Shown: one piece after another, positions 5,737 through 21,644 of the stretch
Layout: the number at the start of each line of letters is the position of its first letter
Numbering within the stretch: the first letter of the stretch is position 1
Translations under genes and position numbers: made by a program
Source of the DNA: Ignicoccus pacificus DSM 13166
GTDB lineage: Archaea; Thermoproteota; Thermoprotei_A; Sulfolobales; Ignicoccaceae
Direction of reading: 5' to 3'
Assembly: GCA_025340205.1 (NCBI GenBank)
Contig: CP006868.1
Location: 1,140,001 to 1,172,000 of the forward strand
DNA length: 32,000 nt
Notes under the pieces: model-generated
Seen by the model: the letters and a program-made list of their open reading frames with translations, nothing else
Told to the model about the DNA's origin: nothing
Databases searched by the model: none

Positions 5737-6489
5737 TCATTTGGACTCCTCCTTCTTAGCTCTCCAGTAGGCTGCGTGGAGCAAGCTGGCCAAGATAGCT
5801 AGGCCAGCCACTCCCACCCCGAACTCTCTGATCGCCGGGAGAGCGCCTTCCTTGGCCGCCGGAGACTCCGGTAGACCGAAGTACTTCGGATCCGTGAGCT
5901 TGCCCTTGAACTCCTTGGTGGCGTAGAGCCAGTGCGTTCCCCCGACGTTCGGAAGCCTCTCTCCGTAGATCTCGAATCCTTCACTCTTTAGCTTTTGAAT
6001 TACCTCATCCTTCTTCCCGAATACCAATGCTTGGGTCGGACAAGCCTCCACGCAAGCTGGGAGCTTTCCGTCCCTTATCCTGTCTATACACATCGTGCAC
6101 TTGTACACCTTCCCGCTGCCCTCATCATACTTGGGCACGTCGAAGGGACAAGCCTCCACGCAGTACTGGCAACCTATGCACTTCTCCGGCCTTACGTAAA
6201 CCGCCCCTTCCTCGGTCTTGGTCATAGCCCCGGTAGGACAAGCGGAGACGCAAGGGGGATCGTTGCAGTGCATGCACTGTTCCTTTAGCATTATCCACTT
6301 TACCTCTCCATCGAACACTTCCTTGAACTTGATTATGGTGAACGAGTCGGGGGTTAGCGATGGTGGATTGGTGAAGTCCGGAGAGAAGGAGGTCTTCTCC
6401 ACCGGCCTCTGGTTCCATATCTTGCAAGCGGTCTGGCAAGCTCTGCAGCCTATGCACCTATCGGGTATGAACACGCTCGCGTACTCCAT
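5737..6489 (-). CDS. fdnH: formate dehydrogenase iron-sulfur (beta) subunit, 4x[4Fe-4S] ferredoxin-type with C-terminal membrane anchor
   Basis: Cluster motifs are CIGCRACQTAC, CMHCNDPPCVSACP, CIGCQYCVEACP and CTMCIDR...CVEACP. The C-terminal TM segment is GVGVAGLAILASLLHAAYW. The ATG at 6489 shares a base with the alpha stop (TAATG); the ORF-track start at 6498 is the alternative. Confidence 0.85.
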   Translation of the reverse strand: MEYASVFIPDRCIGCRACQTACKIWNQRPVEKTSFSPDFTNPPSLTPDSFTIIKFKEVFDGEVKWIMLKEQCMHCNDPPCVSACPTGAMTKTEEGAVYVRPEKCIGCQYCVEACPFDVPKYDEGSGKVYKCTMCIDRIRDGKLPACVEACPTQALVFGKKDEVIQKLKSEGFEIYGERLPNVGGTHWLYATKEFKGKLTDPKYFGLPESPAAKEGALPAIREFGVGVAGLAILASLLHAAYWRAKKEESK

Positions 6490-9400
6490 TACAACCACCC
6501 TTCTTCTCTAATATTGGGAAGCTCAGCTTCCCTCTCAAAAACGTACTTGTCCTTTGGAGCCTTCCTAATCCATCCGAGGAAGACCTTGCTTTCCTGTATG
6601 GAAGTGATGATGTCGCCGACTTCCGGAGTAAGCAGGTTGGCCACCGAAGGGGTTCTGTGGGAGCCGGCGTAGCCAAAGGGCCAAGGTATGTTCACGTTGT
6701 AGACGGTCTCTCCGGCTATGTCTAGCTTCGGCATTCTGTGAGTAACCATAGCCCTTACGTAGATCTTCGCCCTAGCGGAGCCTATCTCCACTACGTCCCC
6801 GCTCTTTATGCCTAGTTCCTTCGCCAAGGGCTCCGGTATGTGAGCGAAGGGCTCCGGGACCAGCTCGGCTAGGTAGGGGTTGTTCCTACTCAGAGCCCCA
6901 GTGTGCCAGTGCTCCTCCAGCCTGTTGGTGGTGAGCACTATCGGTTTGGCGTCCTTCGGCATCTGCCTCTCAAGTTCTCCCAAGGTCAGAGCGATCTCAG
7001 CTCCGAGCTGAGGGAGCACCTTGGGAGGGAAGATGAACATCTTGTTGAACGGCTTTCTCCACGCTATCTGTGGATACTTCTTAGCTAGCTCTAAGCTGGG
7101 ACTCTCAGCTGGCTCGAAGTGCATTGGGTAATCCAGCGAGTAGGCGAGCGTAACTCCCTTTCTACCAATAGCGAACCACTCGCCGTACTTCTCGATGAAC
7201 TTCTTGACGCAAGGCCGGTAGTTATTGGGATCGTTCCCTACGCACGACGAGAACTCGCTTATGAAGGAGTCGTGGTATTCCTTCCACTCCTTCCAGTCTA
7301 CGTATTTCACCTTCTTGCCTTCAACTACTTTGGTTCCGACGAAGTACGGCTTCTTGAAGAGAGCCTTGCCCTTCTCTACAACTTCCGGATCGTAGTATAC
7401 GCTCTCTTGGACCGGGTACCTCACTCCCAGCTCTGAGAGCTTGACTACCTTGTAGCCGTTCTTGTTTATCAAAACTGTTATTCCTAAGCTCTTACCCTCT
7501 TTCATCAGCTCAGAGGGATTAGCGACTCCTCCGAAGAGGTCGGTCATTTGCTTTCCGTAAACCGTCCAAGCCCTCTTGTAGAACTTGCCCAAGTAGAAAT
7601 TATGACCAGGAACGAAGGCGGGCCTCAGCGTTCCAGTCTTGGAGTCTACTATCTCCCCGGTCTCTCCCGTTATCCTTACCCTTCTTCCGTCCAGGCTCTC
7701 GCCTACCGCATACTTGCCCTTAGGGAACTCCCAGTAGTCTTCCATACCAAAGGTCTTCTCTAAGGTCCAGAGGTTGTAGAGTATCCTCACGTTCTTGGGC
7801 CAGCTCCACCCCCAGTCCTTGTAGAGTCTCAGCGGAGTGTTGGTGTTGGGGTGCTTTAGCGCTCCCGAGTCGAGGAGGCCGTCGACCTCCTTGACGCTTC
7901 TTGGCTGAGCTACCCTCCTCTTGGCTAAGGGGTACATGTGGGCCCAGTCGTACATTCCGTTATAGAGATCAACTGCTGCGTCTATCTCTCTGTAAACTAT
8001 TCTCGGGTTGACCTCGGAGAAGTCCTCCCACTGGGAGGGGTAGGAGTAGTCCATGTAAGGTTCTATGGGCCTCTCGTACATCACTATCTTCTCCTTTGTA
8101 TAGGGATGTATTACCGTAACCTCCTCCTTGTTCTTTCCGGCCTCCTCGCTTGGGAGTCTGACTATTCCGTCTTGCCTCAGCCTCTCGTAGAGCTTCACCA
8201 TTATCCAAAGATCCGGTTTAGCGTCTCCGGGAGGTAGGGCAACCCTATCGCTCCACTGCAACCATCTGTTGCTGTTGGTTATACTTCCCTCCTTCTCGTA
8301 CTGAATGGCTCCGGGAAGTAATACGTCTGCGAACCAGGCTGTTTCGGTCTCGAAGACGTCTGCCAGCACTACCAGCTTCATCTTAGAGAGCGAGGCCCAA
8401 GTGAGCTTAGCGTTGGGATCGCTTACTGCAGGGTTTTCCGCAAATAGGAGTATTCCCTTGAGCACATCATCGACGAGCGTTCCCTTCACGTACGTTATTT
8501 CGTTGTAGCCTACGAAGAAGGGTAGATCGCTTATCACCTTGGAGTTCTCGTCCCAAGGCCTATCCTCTGGCTCGGTTCCCACGAAGGTTCCCATAGTCAG
8601 CTCGAACCTTCTCCAGTTCATGAACCACCAGGACCAGAGCAAGGCCTTTGAGTTGACCTCCAAGGAGCACTCGTTTCCGTTGCAAGAGCACTTGAGACCT
8701 AAGGCCTTGCAAGCGCTCTGAGAAGGTTTCCAGTTGAAGGCATCGGGAAAGCCTTGGAGCTTCCACTCCTGGTAAGCCCTTATCTGCTTGCTGTTTGAGG
8801 GAATCTTTATGTATCCTGGGAAGACGTGGGCTAAGATGCACATGTCCGTAGTACCTTGAACGTTGTTGTGACCTCTGTAGGGGTTGAGACCTCCTCCGGG
8901 GAAGCCCATGTTGCCTAAGGCAAGCTGAACTATCGCCGCCGCCCTTATGTTTTGTACTCCAGTCGTGTGCTGGGTGAGCCCCATCGCCCACTCGATGCTC
9001 GAGAACCTCTTGAAGTTGGTAGCGACCCCGCTGTTGTTAACGTAGAGCTCAGCGATCTTCTTGAGCTTATCTACGGGAACTCCAGTTATCTTCGAGACCT
9101 CGTTTGCATCGTATCTCTTCACCAATTCCTTAAACTCGTTTATTTCTTCCATATCGACGTTGGTCCTCTTAATATACTCCTTAAAGGCCTCTAACTGATC
9201 TATTTTCTTTTCGTAGAAGGCGTAATGAAGGATGTAGTAGAGAAGAGCTACGTCCGTTCCGGGCCTGTGGAAGGCGAACAGGTTCGCTTTAGCGGCCGTT
9301 CTCCCGAACTTCGGATCCACCACTACCAGCTTTAGAGTACCTCTCTCCTTGGACTCTATCACCGGCTTCATGGAGACGGGGTGGGCGTCGGCGGGGTTTC

Positions 9401-10187
9401 CACCGAGTATCAAGTAGACCGCTATGTAGCCTACGTCAGGGAAGCTCTGAGTCTGGGCGCCGAATCCTAAGGTGGCTGCCAAGCCAGCTACCGTGGAGGA
9501 GTGGCACCTCCTAGCGTCGTGGTCTATGTTGTTACTTCCGAAGAGCATTGACATTTTCCTTATGACGTAAGCTTCCTCGTTGAGTAGCTTTGCTCCTGCC
9601 ATTATCATTATCGGATACTTGTTGCCCTCGTAGAAGTAGCAACCAGCCTTGCTGTCGCACACCTTCCCGTCGTATTCATGGTAAGCCTTTACGTTACTTT
9701 CCTTCAAGAGCTCCTTCCACTTCTTGGAAATATAGGCAAAGGCTTCTTCCCAAGTTACCTCTTTCCAGACGGGCTTGAACTGCTTGAGGTAGTTATACAT
9801 CTCATCAGCGTCCTTCATCTCAATGAACTTCTTGTAGTCTGGCTTGGGATTAGTCCTTATCATGGGATTCTTTAGCCTAAGAGGGTTTTTGGACCCAAAC
9901 ATGGCTATCGAGGCTTTACCCTTTACACACAATTTCCCTCTGTTAAGAGGGTTATCGGGGTCTCCCTCTACGTCCAAGACGTCGTTGCCTTTTGTATAGA
10001 AGATCAAACCACATCCTACGCTGCACCACATGCATATGGACCTTCTCTCAACGGTCTTGCTCAGCTCCAAGGTACCTATACTTCCAAGGTCAACTTTCTC
10101 TTCAAAGGCCTCAGCCTTAGCTATAGCTGGAGCCAGAGCGGAGGCCCCCAACAACTTGAGGAACTGCCTTCGATTCGTGCCTTTCAC
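6489..10187 (-). CDS. fdnG: Tat-exported molybdopterin oxidoreductase, FdnG-like formate dehydrogenase catalytic subunit, Cys-type, unusually long (1232 aa)
   Basis: The twin-arginine signal is MKGTNRRQFLKLLGASALAPAIAKA and the N-terminal Fe-S motif is CMWCSVGC. The active-site stretch DHDARRCHSSTVAGLAATLGFGAQTQ parallels the ARV(U/C)HGP.VAGL motif of FdnG/FdhF, with Cys in place of Sec. Confidence 0.85.
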   Translation of the reverse strand: MKGTNRRQFLKLLGASALAPAIAKAEAFEEKVDLGSIGTLELSKTVERRSICMWCSVGCGLIFYTKGNDVLDVEGDPDNPLNRGKLCVKGKASIAMFGSKNPLRLKNPMIRTNPKPDYKKFIEMKDADEMYNYLKQFKPVWKEVTWEEAFAYISKKWKELLKESNVKAYHEYDGKVCDSKAGCYFYEGNKYPIMIMAGAKLLNEEAYVIRKMSMLFGSNNIDHDARRCHSSTVAGLAATLGFGAQTQSFPDVGYIAVYLILGGNPADAHPVSMKPVIESKERGTLKLVVVDPKFGRTAAKANLFAFHRPGTDVALLYYILHYAFYEKKIDQLEAFKEYIKRTNVDMEEINEFKELVKRYDANEVSKITGVPVDKLKKIAELYVNNSGVATNFKRFSSIEWAMGLTQHTTGVQNIRAAAIVQLALGNMGFPGGGLNPYRGHNNVQGTTDMCILAHVFPGYIKIPSNSKQIRAYQEWKLQGFPDAFNWKPSQSACKALGLKCSCNGNECSLEVNSKALLWSWWFMNWRRFELTMGTFVGTEPEDRPWDENSKVISDLPFFVGYNEITYVKGTLVDDVLKGILLFAENPAVSDPNAKLTWASLSKMKLVVLADVFETETAWFADVLLPGAIQYEKEGSITNSNRWLQWSDRVALPPGDAKPDLWIMVKLYERLRQDGIVRLPSEEAGKNKEEVTVIHPYTKEKIVMYERPIEPYMDYSYPSQWEDFSEVNPRIVYREIDAAVDLYNGMYDWAHMYPLAKRRVAQPRSVKEVDGLLDSGALKHPNTNTPLRLYKDWGWSWPKNVRILYNLWTLEKTFGMEDYWEFPKGKYAVGESLDGRRVRITGETGEIVDSKTGTLRPAFVPGHNFYLGKFYKRAWTVYGKQMTDLFGGVANPSELMKEGKSLGITVLINKNGYKVVKLSELGVRYPVQESVYYDPEVVEKGKALFKKPYFVGTKVVEGKKVKYVDWKEWKEYHDSFISEFSSCVGNDPNNYRPCVKKFIEKYGEWFAIGRKGVTLAYSLDYPMHFEPAESPSLELAKKYPQIAWRKPFNKMFIFPPKVLPQLGAEIALTLGELERQMPKDAKPIVLTTNRLEEHWHTGALSRNNPYLAELVPEPFAHIPEPLAKELGIKSGDVVEIGSARAKIYVRAMVTHRMPKLDIAGETVYNVNIPWPFGYAGSHRTPSVANLLTPEVGDIITSIQESKVFLGWIRKAPKDKYVFEREAELPNIREEGWL

Positions 10188-10408: not shown

Positions 10409-10957
10409 CTAGGCCTTGCACAGAGGGTTCCTCTCATCGCATTCCACTCCCATCCTCCTCAGCAAGTCCAACCCTATCACCGCCAAGAGACCTAGCGTGG
10501 GGAGGAAGTCCCTCGTGGAGAGGGCCTCGAGCGCGCTCCTGACCTCCTCTCCCGGCAAGTGGAAAAGAAGAGGATAGAACGCTATGACCTCCTCCGGGAG
10601 GGGCACGAAGGAGAAGGACCACTCTAAAAGACCAGAAGCTTGTTGCTTGAACACGCAGCACATGTCATCCAGGGAAGGGCTATCGGGCAACTTGCTCACG
10701 AAACTAGAGTACTTCTTCATGAACTCCTCGTCTTGCTTTATTCTCTTGAAGTTTTCCTTATAAACAAGCTTTATCATCTCCTTTTTCATCTGGACGTGCT
10801 CGGGCCTAGAGTTGAGCTCGCTCATAATTTCTTCGAGCCTTTCAGTTACCTTGACCAACTCTTCCCCTTTGTTGGAGAGGAACCTCTTGTGCGAGTTAAC
10901 AACGCTTCTGTATATGTTCATTAGAATAAGGTTGTAGGCCTTCTTGACGTAATCCAA
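10409..10957 (-). CDS. hypothetical all-helical protein
   Basis: A 182-aa ORF with reasonable coding composition. No motif was recognised, and a TorD-like chaperone role is speculation only. Confidence 0.45.
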   Translation of the reverse strand: MDYVKKAYNLILMNIYRSVVNSHKRFLSNKGEELVKVTERLEEIMSELNSRPEHVQMKKEMIKLVYKENFKRIKQDEEFMKKYSSFVSKLPDSPSLDDMCCVFKQQASGLLEWSFSFVPLPEEVIAFYPLLFHLPGEEVRSALEALSTRDFLPTLGLLAVIGLDLLRRMGVECDERNPLCKA

Positions 10958-11067: not shown

Positions 11068-12294
11068 ATGTCAACTATCTTGAAGATAGACCGCTTTGGA
11101 CCGATAGAGAACCTCGAGCTTGAGATAAGTAGGGGAACGTATGTGACTATCGGTCTCCCTAACAAGGGGAAAAGCTATTTGATGAAGCTATTGTTTTTGA
11201 TAACTAGGCTGCATCAATCCCCTGTCTTAGGGGGACCCGAGGACCCTGAGGGGGCCTTCAAATTCATGTTTAAGGAGCTGTACGGCGAAGAAGGAGTAAA
11301 ACTGTTCAACGCCTCGAAGTTTGAAATATACGGATACCTTTATAACTTAACATTTGAGGAAGGTCGAGTCGAAATAGAAGAGAAAGAAGTAGATCTCGTT
11401 CCAAGCTCATGTGAAGCTGGATCTCGGACTGAGGTGAACTTAACAGAAGCCTCGTTGGACGTTCTCTCTACTAGTAACTTAATTGCCGTGATGCCCCCTA
11501 GGAACGAGAAGGAAAGGTTAGCCCTCTTGGTGGGCGGCCTGATCGTCGGCACAAGCTACTGTGAGGTGGAGATGACCGTTCCTATATTCACCGGAAGGGG
11601 ATTCTCTAGAATGAAGGAGAAGGTTGACGTGGCACTCTTGCCCTTCAGCGTCTTCTTACCGCACGGTAGGTCCTTCGTAATAGAGCACTATTCCCTATCT
11701 CAAGAATATCCCATGGAGTTCTCCGGATACTTAAAGCTCTATCAGAGTATGAGGTATAGGTTAACCGTTTATCCTTGGCTAAAGGCGCTTGAACTGAACA
11801 AGGACAGACTTAGTGAAACACAGATAGTGAATAAGGTAATGAAAGAAGTGACCGGTGGATATGTTGAGGTTAAAAACGGCAAGCTTCTCTTCAAGGGAGT
11901 TAACTCTACCGTAATGGTCCACTCATCTGCGGACGCCGTCAAAGAACTAGTGGCTCTAGCTTCATCCGAGATCCTAGCTTCTTCTAATCCCTTCTCATAT
12001 CTGTTTATAGAGGAACCGGAGAACCAGCTGCATCCACGAGCTCAAGCGATCTTGGCTAAGACCCTCCCAAATATTGCAGAGGTGTTAATGTTTACTACTC
12101 ATAGCCCCTTTATGATAATAGGATCCTGTCTTAATAGTAAGAGAAGAGTCAGGTTTGTGTACCTAGGCAAAGAAGCAACGGTCCTAAGCTGTAAGGAAAT
12201 AATGAACGAGATTCCCGAGATCACAGAAGTTAGTCTTGAACAGCTAGAGGAGGTAGATAAGAATTGGAATATCATTACAAGCAAGGAAAATTAA
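11068..12294 (+). CDS. ABC-type / OLD-family-like (AAA_15/AAA_21-type) ATPase
   Basis: The N-terminus IDRFGPIENLELEI...IGLPNKGKSYLMKLL carries Walker A. The C-terminal YLFIEEPENQLHPRAQAILAKTL carries Walker B and the D-loop, and FTTHSPFMI is the H-loop. This is the hallmark arrangement of SMC/ABC-like ATPases found in defence systems. Confidence 0.75.
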   Translation: MSTILKIDRFGPIENLELEISRGTYVTIGLPNKGKSYLMKLLFLITRLHQSPVLGGPEDPEGAFKFMFKELYGEEGVKLFNASKFEIYGYLYNLTFEEGRVEIEEKEVDLVPSSCEAGSRTEVNLTEASLDVLSTSNLIAVMPPRNEKERLALLVGGLIVGTSYCEVEMTVPIFTGRGFSRMKEKVDVALLPFSVFLPHGRSFVIEHYSLSQEYPMEFSGYLKLYQSMRYRLTVYPWLKALELNKDRLSETQIVNKVMKEVTGGYVEVKNGKLLFKGVNSTVMVHSSADAVKELVALASSEILASSNPFSYLFIEEPENQLHPRAQAILAKTLPNIAEVLMFTTHSPFMIIGSCLNSKRRVRFVYLGKEATVLSCKEIMNEIPEITEVSLEQLEEVDKNWNIITSKEN

Positions 12295-12701
12295 ATGTTA
12301 AGTGCGATAATAACGAATTCAAAATATTGTCTGATGGTAGCTTGCTTATGGCCTATCACGTGGAGAAGTATTTTTACAAAGGCGGATCTCCTAGGTGCGA
12401 TTGTTTCTTCATTTTCTCATATAATGGTCGAAAGTTCCTATGTATAGCAATAGAGGCCGGCTCTCATGATCCCGAAGAAGTTAGTGAGAAATTCAAGTCC
12501 TTTGAGGGTTTCTTTAAAGGATGTATCTGCTCATGCGTAAACGGACCCCTTTCCTTAGTCAAGGCATTTGCCCCTTCAAGCGCTCTGGTTAATCTTCTGC
12601 AAACTAGACCGTCACTGTACACAGAGTACAAGAGAAAAAGGTATTGTCGTGTTTTTGAGAGAACTGAGAGTAAAGATAGAGGGCAAGAAAGTAAACGTTA
12701 G
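12264..12701 (+). CDS. small partner protein of the ATPase, unknown fold; possibly frameshifted and continuing to 12768
   Basis: It overlaps the ATPase 3' end by 31 nt (TTG start; the next ATG is at 12348). It contains RCDCFFIFSYNGRKFLCIAIEAGSHD. The +1-frame ORF 12568-12768 encodes a plausible beta-rich tail (GIVVFLRELRVKIEGKKVNVSVPIGNKVVDRTYNF), joinable at the A5 run near 12640. Confidence 0.4.
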   Translation: MEYHYKQGKLNVKCDNNEFKILSDGSLLMAYHVEKYFYKGGSPRCDCFFIFSYNGRKFLCIAIEAGSHDPEEVSEKFKSFEGFFKGCICSCVNGPLSLVKAFAPSSALVNLLQTRPSLYTEYKRKRYCRVFERTESKDRGQESKR

Positions 12702-12850
12702 CGTACCCATAGGAAACAAAGTGGTGGATCGGACGTACAACTTTAGGAACTTCTGCAAAAAGGCTTGAAGACTACTCTTAACCTCCTTCCTTTAAAAGTA
12801 CGTGTAAAGCCAGAAATTCGTTTGCTTGGTAGGCTGTTGTTTTGACCATC

Positions 12851-12879: not shown

Positions 12880-13206
12880 ATGAAGATGCAAAGGTTAGCA
12901 CAGATGGCAGAGGAGTACTGCGAGGAGTTCATCAAGACAAAGAAGGAGCGGGAGGAAGGAAAGGAGAAGATATACGCTGTAGAGAGATTAGCTCAGTTCC
13001 TAGCTCAAGCGCTGCTTGACTTTGCAGACATCTTAGCCACTCAAAAGCAAGGAAGGAAGTCGGAAAGTCATAAGGAATTAGCTAAGTTCCTAATATCCAA
13101 AATAGGTCATGAGGAGTTCTTGCTGGACTTAGCTGGGTTCAGAAACGTATTGATTCGCATGTACGTTGAACTGATGATGAACTGGAGAGGGAGATGGGTG
13201 AGGTGA
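12880..13206 (+). pseudogene. HEPN (DUF86/HepT-like) toxin gene, probably inactivated
   Basis: YAVERLAQFLAQALLDFADI ... LAGFRNVLIRMYVEL matches the DUF86 layout. The R-x4-H catalytic His is Arg here (CGC), and the tail (MMNWRGRWVR) appears out of frame relative to the expected ..DDEL.. continuation. Confidence 0.5.
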
Positions 13207-13522
13207 TAAGGAAGATGAAGGAGCTAGCTAGGGATGATCCATGCATCGATGAGGTAAAAGAGATAGTGAGGAAGGTTGTTAAGGAGTGGAAACTGAGGTG
13301 CATAGCCCTGATAGGCTCGCTAGCTAGGGAAGGACCGTGACAAAGACGTTGACTTAGTAATAAAGTTCGGGAGGGGGCGAAGTTGTTAGAGCTGGAGAGG
13401 CTTCAAGCGGAGTTAGAGGATGCTATCGGAAGCAAGGTAGATCTCTAGTGGTAATTGATTACGATGTGAATCCCATAATGGCGAAGACTATAGTCGATGA
13501 GGCCTTGCTGAATATATGGTGA
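13194..13522 (+). pseudogene. MNT-type nucleotidyltransferase antitoxin gene with at least three frame disruptions
   Basis: The pieces MGEVIRKMKELARDD...CIALIGSLAREGP*, DKDVDLVIKFGRG, GAKLLELERLQAELEDAIGSKVDL* and VVIDYDVNPIMAKTIVDEALLNIW* lie in three different frames. The GS..G and D.D nucleotidyltransferase motifs are present. Confidence 0.6.
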
Positions 13523-13730
13523 TAAAGAGAAGTTCGAGAGGGATCTGTCGATCTTGTACAAGAAGATCTTGGATGAGTACCGCTTAGCGCTGGGTAACGT
13601 AAGAAGCTTACCTCGAATGAATCATTAGGATCATTGTTCCTCCGGTGCCGACGTTTCGTAGTTGAGGTCATCGAGCGCTCTAAGAGTGTGTAGCAATAAC
13701 TTTTGCGGACGTGCTCCAGCATTAACGCAA
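13516..13730 (+). pseudogene. second HEPN (DUF86-like) gene remnant, frameshifted and 3'-truncated
   Basis: The ATG at 13516 overlaps the MNT stop (ATGGTGA), as in intact MNT-HEPN pairs. The DUF86-like pieces DKEKFERDLSILYKKILDEY..., ESLGSLFLRCRRFVVEVIERSK and AITFADVLQH are in different frames, and no RN..H motif remains. Coordinates are approximate. Confidence 0.45.
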
Positions 13731-14427: not shown

Positions 14428-15504
14428 ATGAGGAAGGTGGCGATCTTACTACTCTTGTTACTCGCTTCGAAGTCGTTCGCTTTTTTGCTGTCGCGTCACT
14501 TGTGGACTTATAAGACTGGAAGCATAGTTGAAGGGCTGACGTTTTCCGATGATGGAAAACTTGGAGTGGTGTCGTATGATCATTGTATTTACATCCTTGA
14601 TCAAAAGGGGAACTTAATCATAAAGAAGTGTGGAAACAATGCCATGCTTGGCGCATCCTATTGCTGTGACAAGTTCGGATTTGTTAATGAAGATGGTAAC
14701 GCCTACATCTATGATCTCAAGAACGGAACTTGGAAGAAGGTATATGTGGGTTCTGATCACGCTCAAACGATCACAATGCTTCAAGATGGCTTCTTGGCTG
14801 GTAGTTTCAATGATAAGCTCGCCTACTTCACCTTTGATGGATTCAAAGGATGGGATGTGGAGGTAGATATCAGTGGAGCACCCACAGTCTACGGTGAGTA
14901 CGTCTACGTTCCAGGGTATTCTACACCTTCCTATTGTACTTATTGTAAGGGGGCATTGATTATTCTTAACATATCAAGTGGCGAGAGAGTTAGAATTATC
15001 ACATTCTCTGAAAATGTCAATAGTGCCCAAGTCTGTGACCATTACTTAGCTTTGGGAACCGCTCACCACGTTTATCTTTATAATATAAGCAATCCACTAA
15101 GTCCAAAGCTGTTGTGGAGCGTTGGGGGAATTGCAAGCAGTTGCACCTGGGACGTTTGTGGTGGAGCTATCGATATTGCCTTCTCGCCAGATTGCAAGTA
15201 CATACTGAGCGCCGATAATAATGATCACAAAATTCATATCTTTGACATTAAAGGAAACCAAGTGTTAGAGAGGAAGTTTGAGAGTCATGTTTGGTCAGTT
15301 GCTTGGTGGAGGGATAGGATAGCTATCGGATTATACAATGGTAAAGTTTACGTACTCAAGATTAAAGGATATATCCCATCCATCGCTACGGCTTGTCCTT
15401 GTACCACAACAGTTACCACCACGACCACGTTAACTACTACTGTAACGAAGACGATAACCAGAACGACTACGATTACTTATACTATCGCGATAACACAGAA
15501 GTAA
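14428..15504 (+). CDS. secreted beta-propeller (PQQ/WD40-like repeat) protein with C-terminal Thr-rich tract
   Basis: The signal peptide is MRKVAILLLLLLASKSFA. Repeat blades are seen at YILDQKGNLI, YIYDLKNGTW and HIFDIKGNQVL. The C-terminus is TTTVTTTTTLTTTVTKTITRTTTITYTIAI. Confidence 0.6.
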   Translation: MRKVAILLLLLLASKSFAFLLSRHLWTYKTGSIVEGLTFSDDGKLGVVSYDHCIYILDQKGNLIIKKCGNNAMLGASYCCDKFGFVNEDGNAYIYDLKNGTWKKVYVGSDHAQTITMLQDGFLAGSFNDKLAYFTFDGFKGWDVEVDISGAPTVYGEYVYVPGYSTPSYCTYCKGALIILNISSGERVRIITFSENVNSAQVCDHYLALGTAHHVYLYNISNPLSPKLLWSVGGIASSCTWDVCGGAIDIAFSPDCKYILSADNNDHKIHIFDIKGNQVLERKFESHVWSVAWWRDRIAIGLYNGKVYVLKIKGYIPSIATACPCTTTVTTTTTLTTTVTKTITRTTTITYTIAITQK

Positions 15505-15608: not shown

Positions 15609-15689
15609 GGGACTGTCAACTCTTCGATATCGATCCATTTCATTAAAACTAATTACTCCTTTTGATAATACTAAATTGGAATTGTAATA

Positions 15690-16112
15690 ATGCCGCCAAA
15701 GGGACCAATGAAGCCAAAAGAAGTGATTAATGCATCAATATTGTTCTACATCTTAGGCCTATCCCTAAGGAAATCCTCGATAGCTATAAAGGAAATATTC
15801 AAGCTAAGGATATCTCATGAAACTATTAGGAAATATGTCAGGAAGTTCGGATTCAAGATGAGGAGATTAAATGAGAATCACTTCTCAAATGAAGTTCACC
15901 TAGATGATACAATGATAAAGTTAAATAGCTATTACGTTTACCTTTTTGTAGCTTTTGATGAAGCTAATAGAAATTATGCGCTAGTCTATTTAAGCAAAAG
16001 GAAGAGCTCTAAAGCGGTGAAGAGAGTAATTAAGAAGCTTAGGAGGTTAGGAATTAGGAGAATAATTACCGATGGTGCTAAGCAATACAACGTGATAAAG
16101 AACTGGGCTTGA
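15690..16112 (+). CDS. IS6-family DDE transposase, N-terminal part (HTH + first two catalytic Asp)
   Basis: HLDDTMIKL and YLFVAFDEANRNY carry the two Asp residues, followed by ITDGAKQY. The ORF ends at a TGA at 16110-16112. Confidence 0.7.
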   Translation: MPPKGPMKPKEVINASILFYILGLSLRKSSIAIKEIFKLRISHETIRKYVRKFGFKMRRLNENHFSNEVHLDDTMIKLNSYYVYLFVAFDEANRNYALVYLSKRKSSKAVKRVIKKLRRLGIRRIITDGAKQYNVIKNWA

Positions 16113-16369
16113 AACATCATGTAATCAAAGGCATAAAGAAGAGGGATTCTATTGAAGGAGCTATTGGGTACGTCATTAGAAGTATGATGAAATTTAATGT
16201 GAGCTTCTCAAACGTAATTTACTTGTTGTCTCCGATGTTAATAATAGAAGCAATAGCTTATGCGAGAAATTTCATCTTTAATGAGCTGGGAATAAATCAT
16301 AGGACGTACAATAAGTACGAGGGAAGTATAATGAGTATGATAAACTCAATAATTAATGGTACGGTATAG
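16109..16369 (+). CDS. IS6-family DDE transposase, C-terminal part (-1 frame)
   Basis: LKHHVIKGIKKRDSIEGAIGYVIRSM carries the catalytic Glu region. It overlaps the upstream part by 4 nt in the -1 frame. Confidence 0.65.
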   Translation: MKHHVIKGIKKRDSIEGAIGYVIRSMMKFNVSFSNVIYLLSPMLIIEAIAYARNFIFNELGINHRTYNKYEGSIMSMINSIINGTV

Positions 16370-16392
16370 TACCATCAAGAATTGACAGTCCC

Positions 16393-16400
16393 CTTGTGGA
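16393..16400. repeat. 8-bp target-site duplication CTTGTGGA (right copy) of IS copy A
   Basis: It matches 15601-15608. Confidence 0.7.
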
Positions 16401-16436
16401 GGAGCTATTATACAGCATAATATTATGTAAGAGGGG

Positions 16437-16610
16437 TTGGGAAAGTTGAGCAGGGCTACTAGGAGAGTGATAGAAGAGACAGAGCCCCTACCGGACGAAA
16501 AAGAGGCGATCGAGGAGTTCCTGAGCGGGAAAGCTGAAATTATCAGTCTAGAGGAGCTCCGGGAGCTCCTCAGTATGCCCCTCCACGAGGGCCTACGTAG
16601 GTTAGAGTGA
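16437..16610 (+). CDS. small acidic antitoxin-like ORF (about 55 aa, TTG start), convergent with relE
   Basis: The translation is ...RVIEETEPLPDEKEAIEEFLSGKAEIISLEELRELLSMPLHEGLRRLE*. It resembles short archaeal RelB-like antitoxins and the remnant at 13986-14130. It is below the ORF-track length cutoff, and only TTG starts (16437 or 16446) are available. Confidence 0.3.
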   Translation: MGKLSRATRRVIEETEPLPDEKEAIEEFLSGKAEIISLEELRELLSMPLHEGLRRLE

Positions 16611-16831
16611 TCACCTTGTTCTTTTCATAAACCACGTAAATCACTCTGTAGCTTCCAAGCCTCACCCTGTAAGTATTCTCATATCCCTTCATCTTTATTA
16701 TATCGAAGTTCTTGGGAATGGGGTTTTTCTCCGACTCTTCGATCAGTTGGTTCAGAAGTTCCTTGTAGGTCCTTGGGAGCAATAGAGCTCCCTTGGCCAC
16801 CCTCTTCGTCAGTTGATACCGTGTAACCCAT
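16570..16831 (-). pseudogene. relE: RelE-family toxin gene with an early 1-nt frame disruption
   Basis: The downstream frame gives ...LTKRVAKGALLLPRTYKELLNQLIEESEKNPIPKNFDIIKMKGYENTYRVRLGSYRVIYVVYEKNKVITLTYVGPRGGAY, a canonical RelE pattern. The only ATG (16831, preceded by GGAG) is in a different frame (MGYTVS...). An in-frame GTG at 16800 would give a truncated 76-aa product. Confidence 0.6.
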
Positions 16832-17074
16832 CTCCTCTCTCTCCGTATATTTTTTGTGGAATAAATTTAGAGGCCGGAAAGAGGTGGACGGAGGAGAACA
16901 GCACACAGAACTAAAATAGAACAGTGCAGGCTTGATAGATGGTGACACCATGGAGAAAGAGGGTAAAAAAGAGAAAAAGGATGAACGAGGACTCCCTATA
17001 ATTAAACGATACGCTATCAGCACACCAGCAAGGGACCCCTTCGAGAATAAAGACGAAGAAGAGGAAGCATAGCT

Positions 17075-18298
17075 CTATTTGAAAGTTAGCACTGCCCAGA
17101 GTACTTGAAAGAGAGTCAAAACGAAAAGATATATGTTAAGCATAAACTCTTGCAAGGACCTCGTTCTATCCAGCAACTCCGCCATTGACGAGATGAAGCT
17201 CCTAAGATATTCAATATCGTTTCGAAATGTCTCTATTACATCCATTATGCGAACGATCTCAGTCTTCAAATCATCCAGAGTATCTCTCGGTATCTCTAAA
17301 TCATCTATATAGCTGAGGTATTCTCTTACTTGTAACAGGTAATTTTGGAGGTTGTATATGATTGTAGTTGTTGAGTACAACAAATCATCCGCAAAATCTT
17401 TTACCATACTAAGCTTCATGCTAAGGGTCTTCGGTCTACCGGGGTGGAGAAGATTTAGAAGTACTGAGGCCTCGGATACCTTGAGGACCTCTCTTAGGTA
17501 ATAATTATCTATAGGACTCCATACTCTCATTTCAAATTCCGTCTTAAAGAAGCACGAAGGGGAGAACATTACATATTCTTTGAACCCTTTCCTCTCTGGA
17601 ATACATAGACAATCAAAGGTAAGCTCTTCAACCACATCTCTATGTTCAGGAGAGAGCGCTCCAAGAAACATGTTGTATTTAAGAGTACTGAAGAAGAGTA
17701 TATCTTCGACTATATAGTTATTAGAGGACCTCGGAGGAAGGAGAACGTATGTCGTCTTAAACAGTTTTCCATAGGAGTAGAGCAACTCTTCGATTATTTT
17801 GTCATTATATATTTTCCTATCAGTAGTAAAAAATATTGGAGTTCTTAGACGAAGCCTATACTCGGTCTCGACAGGTAACCAACTTCCTATCCTCTGGAAG
17901 TACGTTTTTTGATCACTAGCACGATCAGTATAGATAATAATTGAATAGGGAGAAAGGAGAGAGAGTGAAACTGCCTTTAGATTACCCCTCGCACATCGAA
18001 TAATTTCATTCATAGGAAGTGCTCCAACGCGGGTTACTTCATTCGCTATACTCGCCCTCAAATCCTTTGGAATTCTGCGCAAATCCTCATCTTTAACAAT
18101 ATCAAGTAAAGTATCAACATTAGTATATTCTAGCTCAAATTCTTTGCTTCTATTGCGTTCATAATCGCCTATTATCTTAACTTTTAGATTCATAATTTCA
18201 CATGAAGGAAAACAACTCAGAATTAATAGAGAATTCAAGCTCATGGGACTGTTAATCTTCCTTTCCGAACCATTCCATATAAAAGCAGCCGCGATCAT
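17075..18298 (-). CDS. unknown protein with coiled-coil C-terminal region and a single C-terminal TM helix (tail-anchored topology)
   Basis: The ORF is 407 aa, with alternative starts at 18244 and 18193 (MNLKVKIIGDYE). The C-terminus is ...LDRTRSLQEFMLNIYLFVLTLFQVLWAVLTFK*. GC is markedly lower than in the flanking host genes. No known motif was recognised. Confidence 0.55.
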   Translation of the reverse strand: MIAAAFIWNGSERKINSPMSLNSLLILSCFPSCEIMNLKVKIIGDYERNRSKEFELEYTNVDTLLDIVKDEDLRRIPKDLRASIANEVTRVGALPMNEIIRCARGNLKAVSLSLLSPYSIIIYTDRASDQKTYFQRIGSWLPVETEYRLRLRTPIFFTTDRKIYNDKIIEELLYSYGKLFKTTYVLLPPRSSNNYIVEDILFFSTLKYNMFLGALSPEHRDVVEELTFDCLCIPERKGFKEYVMFSPSCFFKTEFEMRVWSPIDNYYLREVLKVSEASVLLNLLHPGRPKTLSMKLSMVKDFADDLLYSTTTIIYNLQNYLLQVREYLSYIDDLEIPRDTLDDLKTEIVRIMDVIETFRNDIEYLRSFISSMAELLDRTRSLQEFMLNIYLFVLTLFQVLWAVLTFK

Positions 18299-18401
18299 GA
18301 GCTACCTCTTTCATCCTAGCAGTTTGTTGAAGAGTGATACCACGAATTCCCCGATGTTCTTCTAGTTCTCGTCCAGCTGCTTGCAGATGATAGTTACTTT
18401 T

Positions 18402-18626
18402 TCATGTTTGAACTTTGGAACGTATTGATCCTTGTATCCTTTGTGAAAGGTAAAAGATGACGTCGGAGCGGCTCCTAAGGCCTAGTTCTCGCTTGAGGTT
18501 CTTGAGGAGCTGATATGCTTCTTGTGAGAAGGGAACGTTCACGTATCTCCTTGAAGAGCTGCTAGTTAGTTGAGAGCTATCGCTCGAGCTCATGAGATCA
18601 CCTCGAGGAACCCATAGCTTTCCCAT
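18402..18626 (-). CDS. ribbon-helix-helix (CopG-like) DNA-binding protein
   Basis: RYVNVPFSQEAYQLLKNLKRELGLRSRSDVIFYLSQ fits the beta-strand/helix/helix RHH pattern. The likely start is the ATG at 18593. It lies upstream of, and co-directional with, the 407-aa gene. Confidence 0.55.
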   Translation of the reverse strand: MGKLWVPRGDLMSSSDSSQLTSSSSRRYVNVPFSQEAYQLLKNLKRELGLRSRSDVIFYLSQRIQGSIRSKVQT

Positions 18627-18750
18627 AGGATCATGGGAGACGTCTTGGAACTCGCTATAACTTTTCCGTGAATGTTATGAGAGAAATCGTTGAACTCTAA
18701 ATGAGTATTAAATGAAACTCTCAATGGGGGACTGTCAATTCTTGATGGTA

Positions 18751-19011
18751 CTATACCGTACCATTAATTATTGAGTTTATCATACTCATTATACTTCCCT
18801 CGTACTTATTGTACGTCCTATGATTTATTCCCAGCTCATTAAAGATGAAATTTCTCGCATAAGCTATTGCTTCTATTATTAACATCGGAGACAACAAGTA
18901 AATTACGTTTGAGAAGCTCACATTAAATTTCATCATACTTCTAATGACGTACCCAATAGCTCCTTCAATAGAATCCCTCTTCTTTATGCCTTTGATTACA
19001 TGATGTTTCAA
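18751..19011 (-). CDS. IS6-family transposase C-terminal part (copy B)
   Basis: The translation is identical to 16109-16369. Confidence 0.65.
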   Translation of the reverse strand: MKHHVIKGIKKRDSIEGAIGYVIRSMMKFNVSFSNVIYLLSPMLIIEAIAYARNFIFNELGINHRTYNKYEGSIMSMINSIINGTV

Positions 19012-19430
19012 GCCCAGTTCTTTATCACGTTGTATTGCTTAGCACCATCGGTAATTATTCTCCTAATTCCTAACCTCCTAAGCTTCTTAATTACTCTCTT
19101 CACCGCTTTAGAGCTCTTCCTTTTGCTTAAATAGACTAGCGCATAATTTCTATTAGCTTCATCAAAAGCTACAAAAAGGTAAACGTAATAGCTATTTAAC
19201 TTTATCATTGTATCATCTAGGTGAACTTCATTTGAGAAGTGATTCTCATTTAATCTCCTCATCTTGAATCCGAACTTCCTGACATATTTCCTAATAGTTT
19301 CATGAGATATCCTTAGCTTGAATATTTCCTTTATAGCTATCGAGGATTTCCTTAGGGATAGGCCTAAGATGTAGAACAATATTGATGCATTAATCACTTC
19401 TTTTGGCTTCATTGGTCCCTTTGGCGGCAT
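19008..19430 (-). CDS. IS6-family transposase N-terminal part (copy B)
   Basis: The translation is identical to 15690-16112. Confidence 0.7.
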   Translation of the reverse strand: MPPKGPMKPKEVINASILFYILGLSLRKSSIAIKEIFKLRISHETIRKYVRKFGFKMRRLNENHFSNEVHLDDTMIKLNSYYVYLFVAFDEANRNYALVYLSKRKSSKAVKRVIKKLRRLGIRRIITDGAKQYNVIKNWA

Positions 19431-19583
19431 TATTACAATTCCAATTTAGTATTATCAAAAGGAGTAATTAGTTTTAATGAAATGGATCGATATCGAAGAG
19501 TTGACAGTCCCAAAACGACTTAGCGGGCTTGACTTGGCCCTAAGAGTCATTACACGTTTATCATTTCTCCATCTGAAAGCCAA

Positions 19584-19919
19584 GTGGGTTGGACGCGAGC
19601 TCCTTGCATTTTTTTTTTTTTATCGCTTAAAATCCTCCTAAGACGGTATACTGTCTTGTCCCTCCTTGAGGAACTCCAAAGGAAGGCAAACGAGGAAAGG
19701 AAATACCCAAACGATCAAGAGTTCTTGGAAAGAAAGGCAATAGATGTTATCTATGAAATGCTCAAAGCTAAGGAACTACTCGAAAAGGGAGATACCAGAA
19801 ATGCAGCTGGCAAGGCCTTCCAAGCTTGGAAGGATCTGCTTTCATGCTTGATCTACTTGAACTTGGATAAGCTAGCTAAAGATGAGAAGGAGAAAGAGTG
19901 GTATCTCAAAAGGGAATAA
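19584..19919 (+). CDS. PaREP1-like (HEPN-superfamily helical) protein, N-terminal half
   Basis: AKELLEKGDTRNAAGKAFQAWKDLLSCL resembles the PaREP1 pattern (E.LLEKGD...AS.K.W.A). The first 24 codons of the ORF-track model run through the T13 tract and are unlikely to be coding. Confidence 0.4.
   Translation: MGWTRAPCIFFFLSLKILLRRYTVLSLLEELQRKANEERKYPNDQEFLERKAIDVIYEMLKAKELLEKGDTRNAAGKAFQAWKDLLSCLIYLNLDKLAKDEKEKEWYLKRE
19609..19621 (+). repeat. T13 homopolymer
   Basis: Read directly from the sequence. It lies between IS copy B and the PaREP1-like gene promoter. It could act as an oligo-T terminator for plus-strand read-through out of the IS, or as an indel hotspot. Confidence 0.5.
19626..19633 (+). 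promoter_or_regulatory. TATA-like box CTTAAAAT about 26 nt upstream of an in-frame TTG at 19656
   Basis: The spacing fits a leaderless start for the PaREP1-like gene. This would make the real ORF 19656-19919. Confidence 0.3.
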
Positions 19920-20200
19920 TGGTTCCAACTACCAAAATGCAGCCCTTGGCGTTGAAACTAGAGGAGCTAGGCTTCAAGGGGATCTCTTCTTGGAGTGATA
20001 AAGCTCTACTTCTCCACAACTACCAGTACAACGGACCGGATCCAGTCAACTACTACGGAGGGATCGTAAGCGAAGAGGTCGCAAAGGAGTACGTGAAGCT
20101 ATTGCTCAAGGCTACTAAGGATTACTTGGAGAGGTATGTTCTTCCTCATATCAAAGGGAAGAGCTTGGAGATGATAAGGGAAGGGCTGAAGCTGATTTAA
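19898..20200 (+). CDS. PaREP1-like protein, C-terminal half (-1 frame relative to the N-terminal half)
   Basis: SSWSDKALLLHNYQYNG ... VAKEYVKLLLKATKDYLE matches the second half of the family pattern (W..A..LH..FY). It overlaps the upstream ORF by 22 nt, with the frame change near the CAAAAGGG run at about 19908. Confidence 0.4.
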   Translation: MVSQKGIMVPTTKMQPLALKLEELGFKGISSWSDKALLLHNYQYNGPDPVNYYGGIVSEEVAKEYVKLLLKATKDYLERYVLPHIKGKSLEMIREGLKLI

Positions 20201-20210
20201 GGATAAAATC

Positions 20211-21644
20211 TCAGTACGTTTTCGCTAGCCTTACTATGACCTTCGCCTCCCTTCCACACGTTATGCACCTCTTCCCCTTCACCTTCGCGTCCTTGTCTAA
20301 AGGCATCCCCAGCACCCTTCCGACCTCTTCGTCCATCCTCAATCCACATTCCTTCCTTCCGCACCAGGGGACTTCCACAACCATCCTCTTCTCGACTAGC
20401 TCCTTCGCCTCCTCTAGGTCATCCGTCTGAACGATCCTTGACCTCATGAACTCCCATGCCTTTTCCTTGATATTGTTGAAGAACTCCTCGCTCATCTCCT
20501 TCAGCTTTTGATCTAGCTCCTCCCTCTTCACTTTGGTTCTCTTCCTTATGTCCCTCCTGGCTACGGTTAGCTCCCCTTCCAGCTCCCTCTTGCCTATCTC
20601 TATCCTGAAGGGAACTCCCTTCAGCTCCCACTCGTAGTACTTGTGTCCAGGGGTCTTGTCGTCCCTATCGTCTAGTACCACCCTCCATCCCTTCTCCTTT
20701 AACCCCTCGGTAATTTCCTTAGCTACTTCCCTCACCTTCTTGTCCAGTTCCTCGTCCTTCTGAGGTATTGGAATCACTACCACTTGGATCGGAGCGACCT
20801 TTGGAGGTAGCACTAGTCCCCTGTCGTCTCCGTGGACGGCTATCAAAGCGGCTATTATTCTGTCAGAAATTCCGTAGGAGGTCTGCCAAGCGTAGTCCAC
20901 CTCCTCGTCCTTCCTCTGGAACCTAACCTCGAAGGGTATGGTGAAGTTCTGGCCCAAGTGGTGAACCGTTCCTATCTGCAGAACCCTTCCGTCCGGCATT
21001 ACGGTGTCGAAGGCCACGGTGTAGAGGGCTCCCGCGAACCTGTCCCAAGAGGGCCTCATGTTTATCATATAAGGAATTCCCAATTCATCATAAATCCTCT
21101 TGTAGATCTCAATCGCTTCCTTGCATTGCTTGTCAGCGTCTTCAAAGCTTTCATGGGCGGTGTGGGCCTCCTTGAAGGTGCTTACCTCCCTCAGCCTTAT
21201 GAGGGGCCTAGTGGCCTTGGTCTCATAACGATAAACGGGAACTATTTGGTAAAGCTTCATTGGTAGTTGCTTGTAGCTGCTTATCCAGAAGCTCTCCATG
21301 TAGCTTATGGCCGTCTCGCTCGTTGGCCTCAGCGCCAAGGGTATGTCAAGCTCTTCATGACCTCCCTTGGTAACCCAGTAGACCTCTCCCTCGAATCCCC
21401 TTATGTGCTCAGTTTCCTTTTCGAGCAAGGTTTTGGGAATGAGTACGGGGAAGAGGACCTCCTCGTGGCCGGTCTCATCCAATATCCTTCGAACTATGTT
21501 GTCTAGAACTAATCTCCTCAGCTTGAAGCCGAAGGGCATCCAAACTCCCATTCCCTTAACGGGGTATCTTCCGTAGTCGTAGAGACCGCTCTCCCTTAGT
21601 ACTGTATCGTACCACTCGCTGAAGTTGCTCTTATCCAGCTTCAT
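20211..21644 (-). CDS. proS: prolyl-tRNA synthetase, archaeal/eukaryal type
   Basis: The 477-aa protein shows class II motifs ([55 protein letters not shown]), an anticodon-binding region, and a C-terminal Cys-containing domain ending ...RLAKTY. Confidence 0.9.

Follow-up and report, generated by a model that had tools for sequence, protein, structure and literature searches.

An ABC ATPase gene and its frame-disrupted, cysteine-rich neighbour in a low-GC island of Ignicoccus pacificus: a tentative conflict module

In the genome of the archaeon Ignicoccus pacificus DSM 13166, a gene for an ATP-binding cassette (ABC) ATPase is followed by a small, overlapping open reading frame (ORF), and this locus raises the question of whether the two genes form a defence module and whether the second of them is still intact. 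The window considered here is the whole analysed stretch of 32,000 nucleotides (nt), corresponding to positions 1,140,001 to 1,172,000 of the forward strand of contig CP006868.1 (assembly GCA_025340205.1), and all coordinates given below refer to it. An earlier sequence-only reading had proposed a two-gene module for positions 11068 to 12768. Comparable layouts are known from PARIS, in which the ABC ATPase AriA is accompanied by the TOPRIM nuclease AriB (PMC11464382, PMC10802264), and from HEC-02 (Hma-embedded candidate 02), which consists of the ABC ATPase HEC-02A and the NERD-like PD-(D/E)xK protein HEC-02B (bioRxiv 10.1101/2024.01.29.577857). We tentatively interpret the locus as an ATPase-plus-effector conflict module of the PARIS/HEC-02 kind, the effector gene of which was either pseudogenised or mis-sequenced, in an island rich in insertion sequences (IS) and toxin genes; this interpretation is given slightly less than an even chance.

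The first gene and its motifs are located as follows:

11068-12294, plus strand: intact ABC ATPase gene, 408 amino acids (aa), ATG start, from the ORF and its translation
11152-11175, plus strand: Walker A motif, G29-LPNKGKS36
11998-12036, plus strand: Walker B motif with the D-loop region, Y311-LFIEEPENQLHP323
12094-12108, plus strand: H-loop, T343-THSP347

The succession of Walker A, FIEEPE.QLHP and TTHSP described in the sequence-only reading is present in full, and the catalytic motifs are intact (GLPNKGKS at residues 29-36, LFIEE with Walker B and the catalytic glutamate at 312-316, and THS at 344-346). The codon score of the gene, expressed as log-odds trained on the long genes of the window, is 0.34 per codon and typical for real genes of the window. 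Within residues 303-350, to which the Pfam matches are confined, the protein passes the cut-offs of AAA_15 (2.5e-11, 44.3 bits, cut-off 32.1) and AAA_21 (2.7e-7, 31.4 bits, cut-off 27). In PADLOC, 71 defence-system ATPase models match the protein, led by the HEC-02A model PDLC04214 (7.1e-14, residues 241-383 against profile positions 165-317 of 338) and followed by AriA (2.4e-13), PD-T4-4_A (1.3e-10), GajA (4.4e-10), then Old, and PtuA at only ~1e-6, which bears out the suggestion that the signature is of a defence type. Pairwise comparison by BLASTP with HEC-02A of Dickeya dianthicola, which has been validated by experiment and was taken from supplementary table 2 of bioRxiv 10.1101/2024.01.29.577857, gave an E-value of 6e-8 over residues 265-398, so that the similarity continues past the H-loop towards the C-terminus. 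When the protein was aligned with HEC-01A and HEC-02A, residues G34, K35, E316, P317, E318, H345 and S346 proved invariant, and the window ATPase carries a much longer Insert 1 in the same alignment.

A grouping with housekeeping ABC or SMC proteins, which the sequence-only reading had named as a result that would speak against a defence role, was not observed: the housekeeping families ABC_tran, SMC, RecF and RecN gave no match at E<=1 in Pfam or NCBIfam. NCBIfam yielded only matches far below threshold, and no chain of the PDB was recovered at E<=1. Among ~5.8 billion proteins, the only homologue found was the protein itself, and no relatives were detected in viral, metagenome, plasmid or phage DNA. 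From these profile and motif matches, the gene product is almost certainly a real member of the AAA_15/AAA_21 clade of conflict-system ABC ATPases, of which it appears to be an extremely divergent representative, standing apart from the housekeeping ABC/SMC proteins.

The small gene downstream, referred to as the partner in the following, is composed of these elements:

12249-12254, plus strand: Shine-Dalgarno-like motif GGAGGT, located in the terminal part of the ATPase gene, 9 nt ahead of the TTG start
12264-12701, plus strand: small ORF as sequenced, 145 aa, TTG start, ending in the out-of-frame tail RYCRVFERTESKDRGQESKR
12264-12638, plus strand: N-terminal 125 codons of the partner in frame 0, from the TTG start, by translation
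12568-12768, plus strand: second-frame ORF, the frame being open from 12559
12633-12641, plus strand: AGAAAAAGG, containing the A5 run
12635-12639, plus strand: A5 run, the likeliest site of the change from frame 0 to frame +1 according to the homopolymer list and the sliding frame scores
12640-12768, plus strand: C-terminal 42 codons of the partner and the stop codon in frame +1, translated as GIVVFLRELRVKIEGKKVNVSVPIGNKVVDRTYNFRNFCKKA followed by the stop

The small ORF and the ATPase gene share exactly 31 nt, as had been noted before. The motif GGAGGT occurs 23 times on the plus strand in 32 kb, so that its chance placement at 5-12 nt before a start has a probability below 1%, and similar motifs stand ahead of several other ORFs of the window. 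Judging from the 31-nt overlap, the Shine-Dalgarno-like motif and the TTG start, the small gene is predicted to be translationally coupled to the ATPase gene.

As proposed, a second frame and an A5 run are present, and removal of one A from this run joins 125 codons of frame 0 with 42 codons of frame +1; the fused product amounts to 167 aa instead of the approximately 168 aa given earlier. The fused reading contains GIVVFLRELRVK and, joined to it, LYTEYKRK, and the truncated 145-aa reading contains RYCRVFERTESK. The N-terminal part contains seven cysteines in 125 residues (C14, C45, C47, C60, C87, C89 and C91), arranged as CxC...C...CxCxC with one further cysteine near the N-terminus. Open off-frame segments average 1.26% cysteine. 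The 5.6% of the N-terminal part exceeds the content of all 42 long off-frame segments; it matches the density in the iron-sulfur subunit encoded in the window and is seen nowhere else there. The partner is therefore not a typical spurious-ORF artefact, and the arrangement of the cysteines suggests a metal site or disulfides. The string RCDCFFIF...LCIAIEAGSHD, which had been regarded as a possible metal-binding or nuclease-like core, is indeed encoded by the small ORF, and no fold or domain could be assigned to the partner. The tail of the partner reads in the same frame as the ATPase gene. An origin of the partner as a part once fused to the ATPase was considered and rejected, as it would need two compensating shifts and the Shine-Dalgarno-like motif argues for a separate start; the shared frame is taken as a one-in-three coincidence.

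From its coding statistics, the region after the ATPase gene appears fairly likely to be, or to have been, a single gene of about 167 aa. Only 7.5e-4 of first-order Markov sequences with the composition of the island stay free of stops for 502 nt when a single change of frame is permitted, and the open path is hence far longer than expected by chance. In frame +1, the 42 tail codons score 0.495 per codon; among real in-frame windows this is the 60th percentile, and none of the 462 open off-frame windows reaches it. Beyond the A5 run, the last 20 codons of frame 0 (12639-12698) score -0.545 and are non-coding-like, and so is frame +1 before the run, the codon log-odds changing frame at this site. 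Over all of 12264-12560, frame 0 outscores the other two frames in the sliding profile, and the N-terminal 125 codons reach 0.09-0.20 per codon, exceeding eight out of eight open off-frame windows. Of the two properties of the small ORF that the sequence-only reading had considered decisive, a coding signal is thus present; conservation was not seen.

Stop codons in both frames bound the frame change to 12559-12698, an interval in which the only homopolymers are the A5 run at 12635 and a T5 run at 12652-12656. If frame 0 is continued past the A5 run, the codon CGT is read, which makes up 1% of the arginine codons, and this rarity favours the A5 run as the site of the change. The transition from frame 0 to the tail frame requires that one base be skipped (+1). 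As sequenced, the partner gene is probably either a pseudogene or limited to a shortened product of 145 aa, unless a sequencing error introduced the extra A.

The favoured explanation is a two-gene operon in a low-GC (guanine plus cytosine) island that a Desulfurococcales-like archaeon would have acquired horizontally. Its first gene encodes the intact, divergent AAA_15/AAA_21 ABC ATPase, a member of the clade from which PARIS, HEC-02, Gabija, Septu and OLD-type systems draw their sensor or scaffold subunit. The second gene would originally have specified the cysteine-rich protein of about 167 aa, translationally coupled to the first, until an indel of one base, for which the A5 run is the likeliest place, put the final 42 codons in frame +1. 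In analogy to PARIS and HEC-02, the ATPase would keep the small effector bound until it senses a trigger derived from an invader, and would then release or activate the effector using ATP. The effector role of the partner and the defence function of the pair are what we infer from these relatives. A physical and functional partnership between ATPase and partner, likewise suggested by analogy, is a tentative assignment that we doubt marginally more than we accept, and it is unlikely that the module is functional at present.

Several results weigh against the proposed module. The N-terminal 125 codons of the partner lie at only the 6th percentile of the real in-frame windows of the window. The fused partner found no homologue among 5.8e9 proteins in a word-indexed search, not even itself, from which it follows that no gene had been called there in the source collection; the 145-aa ORF had no homologue among 1.84e9 representatives in a full phmmer search, and plasmid and phage DNA (tblastn) as well as metagenome and viral contigs gave no match to the partner. 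Neither protein has a detectable homologue, and conserved linkage of the two genes is consequently not demonstrable. In any reading, the partner is without a match in Pfam, NCBIfam, PADLOC and PHROGs, up to E = 10 for the fused form, which agrees with the earlier remark that no HNH, Toprim or obvious PD-(D/E)xK domain is recognisable, and the PDB sequence search produced chance matches only. Structure prediction, suggested before as a check on the fused model, was of no help: single-sequence AlphaFold2 models reached a mean predicted local distance difference test score (pLDDT) of 39.8 for the fused partner and 34.9 for the ATPase, both unusable, and the Foldseek matches of the partner model to lipid-binding proteins, with a template modelling (TM) score of ~0.2, are meaningless. 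The scores of HEC-02A, AriA, PD-T4-4_A and GajA are too close to each other for the ATPase to be assigned to a single named system, and defence is proposed from family analogy.

The genomic setting of the two genes is outlined by the following features:

6489-10187, minus strand: molybdopterin oxidoreductase with a twin-arginine translocation (TAT) signal, to the left of the island, GC ~0.52
10409-10957, minus strand: ORF of 182 aa, apparently all-helical, in the low-GC region upstream of and divergent from the ATPase gene
12880-13625 (within): HepT-like HEPN gene, short with 108 aa (6e-8), followed by frame-hopping fragments
14428-15504: protein of 358 aa with a hydrophobic, signal-like segment at its N-terminus, weak matches to WD40/beta-propellers and a C-terminal tail rich in threonine (TTTVTTTTTLTTTVTKTITRTTTITYT)
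15609-16393 and 18727-19511: two IS copies of 785 bp, 100% identical, in inverted orientation
16570-16800, minus strand: ParE/RelE-like toxin (Pfam ParE_toxin, 5.5e-5), part of the IS cargo
17075-18298, minus strand: orphan ORF of 407 aa, part of the IS cargo, without a family match in Pfam or PHROGs
19584-20200: PaREP1-family gene in two overlapping ORFs, covering Pfam profile positions 8-59 and 64-97
20211-21644, minus strand: prolyl-tRNA synthetase, to the right of the island, GC ~0.52

The island extends from ~9.5 to 20.2 kb with a GC content of ~0.36-0.47, compared to ~0.52 in the flanks, and the ATPase gene and the small ORF are situated near its left end. It contains the HepT-like gene (6e-8), the ParE-like toxin gene (5.5e-5), the split PaREP1 gene and the two IS copies; the GC profile and these genes confirm the lower-GC island with toxin-antitoxin debris that had been recognised from the letters. 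The setting is one of decay: a split PaREP1 gene, a HepT-like gene lacking the histidine of its motif, a split transposase and two IS copies are found in one 10-kb island, and the flanking core genes are intact.

In the HepT-like gene, the Rx4HxY motif reads RNVLIRMY, with arginine in place of histidine, and the subsequent fragments include a nucleotidyltransferase-like stretch, IALIGSLAREG, seen by eye only and not detected by Pfam. The gene and the fragments have the appearance of HEPN/MNT toxin-antitoxin genes that have decayed, and their order is unusual. The PaREP1 gene is split at a short A4G3 run (tctcAAAAGGGaat). The IS copies carry 16-nt terminal inverted repeats, GGGACTGTCAA[C/T]TCTT, and together form a composite-transposon-like unit enclosing 2.3 kb of cargo (16394-18726), which also holds small antitoxin-like ORFs. 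Their DDE_Tnp_IS240-type transposase is split into ORFs of 140 aa and 86 aa (frame 0 to frame 2) in the same way in both copies, so that the element either was already broken when it was duplicated or uses recoding. A comparison of the 408-aa ATPase with the 407-aa orphan ORF, as possible paralogues, revealed no relationship. The 358-aa protein is possibly a secreted or surface glycoprotein, and the 182-aa ORF gave only chance-level matches in Pfam, PADLOC, NCBIfam and PHROGs. Rfam and tRNA scans of the window yielded no matches. When GTDB genomes were scanned with the molybdopterin oxidoreductase that flanks the island, only two contigs, both of Desulfurococcales metagenome-assembled genomes, were recovered (66% and 55% identity); the neighbours there are unrelated, and no empty site could be demonstrated.

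Different explanations of the locus have to be weighed against the favoured module, and the first group of them concerns the origin of the frame change. If the extra A were a homopolymer error of sequencing or assembly, the gene would be intact in the organism, a functional 167-aa partner would be made and the module would be active, which we regard as unlikely. The position of the frame change in one of only two homopolymers of the allowed interval fits such an error, as does the intact ATPase, and the fully coding-like tail (0.495 per codon) means that inactivation, if real, must have been very recent. However, five A's are short for platform errors, and no split is evident among the long ORFs of the ~21 kb of core flanking the island; all recognisable frame disruptions lie in the island, at a homopolymer density ~1.5 times that of the core. 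This distribution favours genuine decay under relaxed selection, a skew resting on three events (P ~0.07) and therefore weak evidence, and the identical transposase split in both IS copies indicates that at least this disruption is not a random error. The slip in the A5 run that the sequence-only reading had postulated could also be a programmed one: +1 ribosomal frameshifting, or transcriptional slippage, at AAA-AGG would then produce isoforms of 145 aa and 167 aa with a regulatory role. Both frames are open across the site, and the P-site tRNA-Lys on AAA (12636-12638) would re-pair perfectly one base downstream within A5. On the other hand, the zero-frame codon following AAA is AGG, which with 66% is the commonest arginine codon and offers no hungry-codon pause, making programmed +1 frameshifting unlikely; a run of five A's is too short for transcriptional slippage to be efficient, the zero-frame extension is non-coding-like, and no relatives were found that would show the site to be retained. 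Recoding is accordingly considered extremely improbable, and mutation or sequencing error likelier.

A second group of explanations concerns the identity of the partner. The ATPase may be a solitary orphan AAA_15 gene, in which case the next 500 nt would be non-functional leftovers from one or several unrelated genes, and the 145-aa ORF would be open by chance. This rather unlikely alternative agrees with the lack of partner homologues, with an ORF that was not called as a gene, with the weak N-terminal codon score and with the adjoining 1.5 kb, which are demonstrably gene debris (the truncated HepT-like gene and the frame-hopping fragments); it is at odds with an open path beyond chance (7.5e-4), the Shine-Dalgarno-like motif at proper spacing, frame 0 being best over the whole N-terminal part, a cysteine enrichment unlike that of off-frame ORFs and the strong coding statistics of the tail. 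Quite improbable, in our view, is a divergent archaeal HEC-02 with a partner homologous to HEC-02B that has lost its catalytic lysine (IEAGS for IEVKD). HEC-02A is the top PADLOC match of the ATPase. The gene for HEC-02B (169 aa) likewise overlaps that of its ATPase, and even HEC-02B goes undetected by the Pfam NERD model, which also means that negative library results say little about the fold of the partner. By eye, a strand led by D46, a strand-E64 hairpin (E64-A-G for E-V-K of HEC-02B) and VVFLRE for VVLHLE can be aligned, and the mean global alignment score against the HEC-02B family exceeded 299 of 300 shuffles and 51 of 52 real protein segments (z-score 3.1), a weak hint only. By contrast, BLASTP of the partner against HEC-02B found nothing, hhalign against a 55-sequence family profile returned a probability of 0.15%, hmmsearch --max gave -2.0 bits, equalled by 655 of 2000 shuffles, and no PADLOC HEC-02B model matched at E<=10. 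The invariant lysine, the tryptophan and the DYR motif are absent from the partner, with glycine at the lysine position in the alignment by eye. Two mutually exclusive alignments by eye are possible, and the global mode of hhalign (0.08%) pairs the tail with the N-terminus of HEC-02B (EG..P..D.T.FRN.F); as it contradicts the core alignment made by eye, neither is trusted. Without statistical support in BLASTP, hhalign, hmmsearch and PADLOC, the partner was rejected as a diverged HEC-02B. Equally doubtful is the most far-reaching explanation, a previously undescribed, hyperthermophile-specific archaeal immune system that is functional in vivo, in which the 167-aa cysteine-rich protein would act under a PARIS/HEC-02-like ATPase as a new, possibly metal-binding effector fold or as an unrecognisably diverged PD-(D/E)xK nuclease, and the frameshift would be a sequencing error or tolerated.

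If the favoured ATPase-plus-effector module does work, it would extend the scheme of an ABC ATPase sensor with a small effector, so far known mainly from bacteria and phages (PARIS, HEC-02, Gabija and Septu), to hyperthermophilic Crenarchaeota (Thermoproteota) and would add an effector type recognised by no current profile. As sequenced, the locus is an orphan of a single genome with a broken partner gene, and thus an example of gene decay in a defence island and a candidate for revisiting with more Desulfurococcales genomes or better structure predictors.

Compared to the named systems, the locus is closest in layout to HEC-02, where an ATPase is combined with a small overlapping effector and both genes are needed for defence (bioRxiv 10.1101/2024.01.29.577857). 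In both cases, the ATPase gene comes first in a two-gene operon, and a partner of ~170 aa overlaps its end. Unlike HEC-02B, the partner in the window has no significant similarity to that family, lacks the lysine of (D/E/Q)xK and is frameshifted; moreover, the window ATPase is 66 aa longer than its counterpart, with a much larger Insert 1, and the host is archaeal. In PADLOC-DB, the model PDLC04145 is named HEC-02A, yet it is 170 positions long and matches the 169-aa Dickeya HEC-02 partner at 1.2e-85, so that the A/B naming is inconsistent for this model. The ATPase fits the AriA model (2.4e-13) nearly as well as that of HEC-02A, the gene logic of ATPase followed by effector is the same as in PARIS, and PARIS serves as the mechanistic template for sequestering and releasing the effector. 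AriB, however, has ~35 kDa and DUF4435/TOPRIM, whereas the partner has ~19 kDa and lacks a TOPRIM pair of glutamate plus DxD; AriB, TOPRIM and DUF4435 had no match in either reading of the partner or in the neighbouring ORFs.

With OLD, GajA and PtuA, the window ATPase shares Pfam AAA_15 membership, the FIEEPE..LHP Walker B and D-loop region and the THSP H-loop. The matches to OLD, Gabija and Septu cover only ~50 residues around Walker B, and, in contrast to OLD and GajA, the window ATPase ends 61 residues past the H-loop and has no match to a fused TOPRIM domain. No helicase, GajB included, was found in the island and no PtuB HNH match in the partner or its neighbours. The layout is HEC-02/PARIS-like but has no NERD-like (D/E/Q)xK, TOPRIM or HNH partner, and the locus should be joined to no named system. 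ABC ATPases of conflict systems were reportedly described by Krishnan, Burroughs and Aravind in a 2020 study, which the HEC-02 paper cites, as being paired with variable effector genes. Although no middle component or recognised effector domain was identified in the window, the locus resembles these and the AbiEii-like AAA_21 ATPases in its small soluble ABC ATPase, its variable inserts, the adjoining fast-evolving effector gene and its location in a mobile toxin-antitoxin island.

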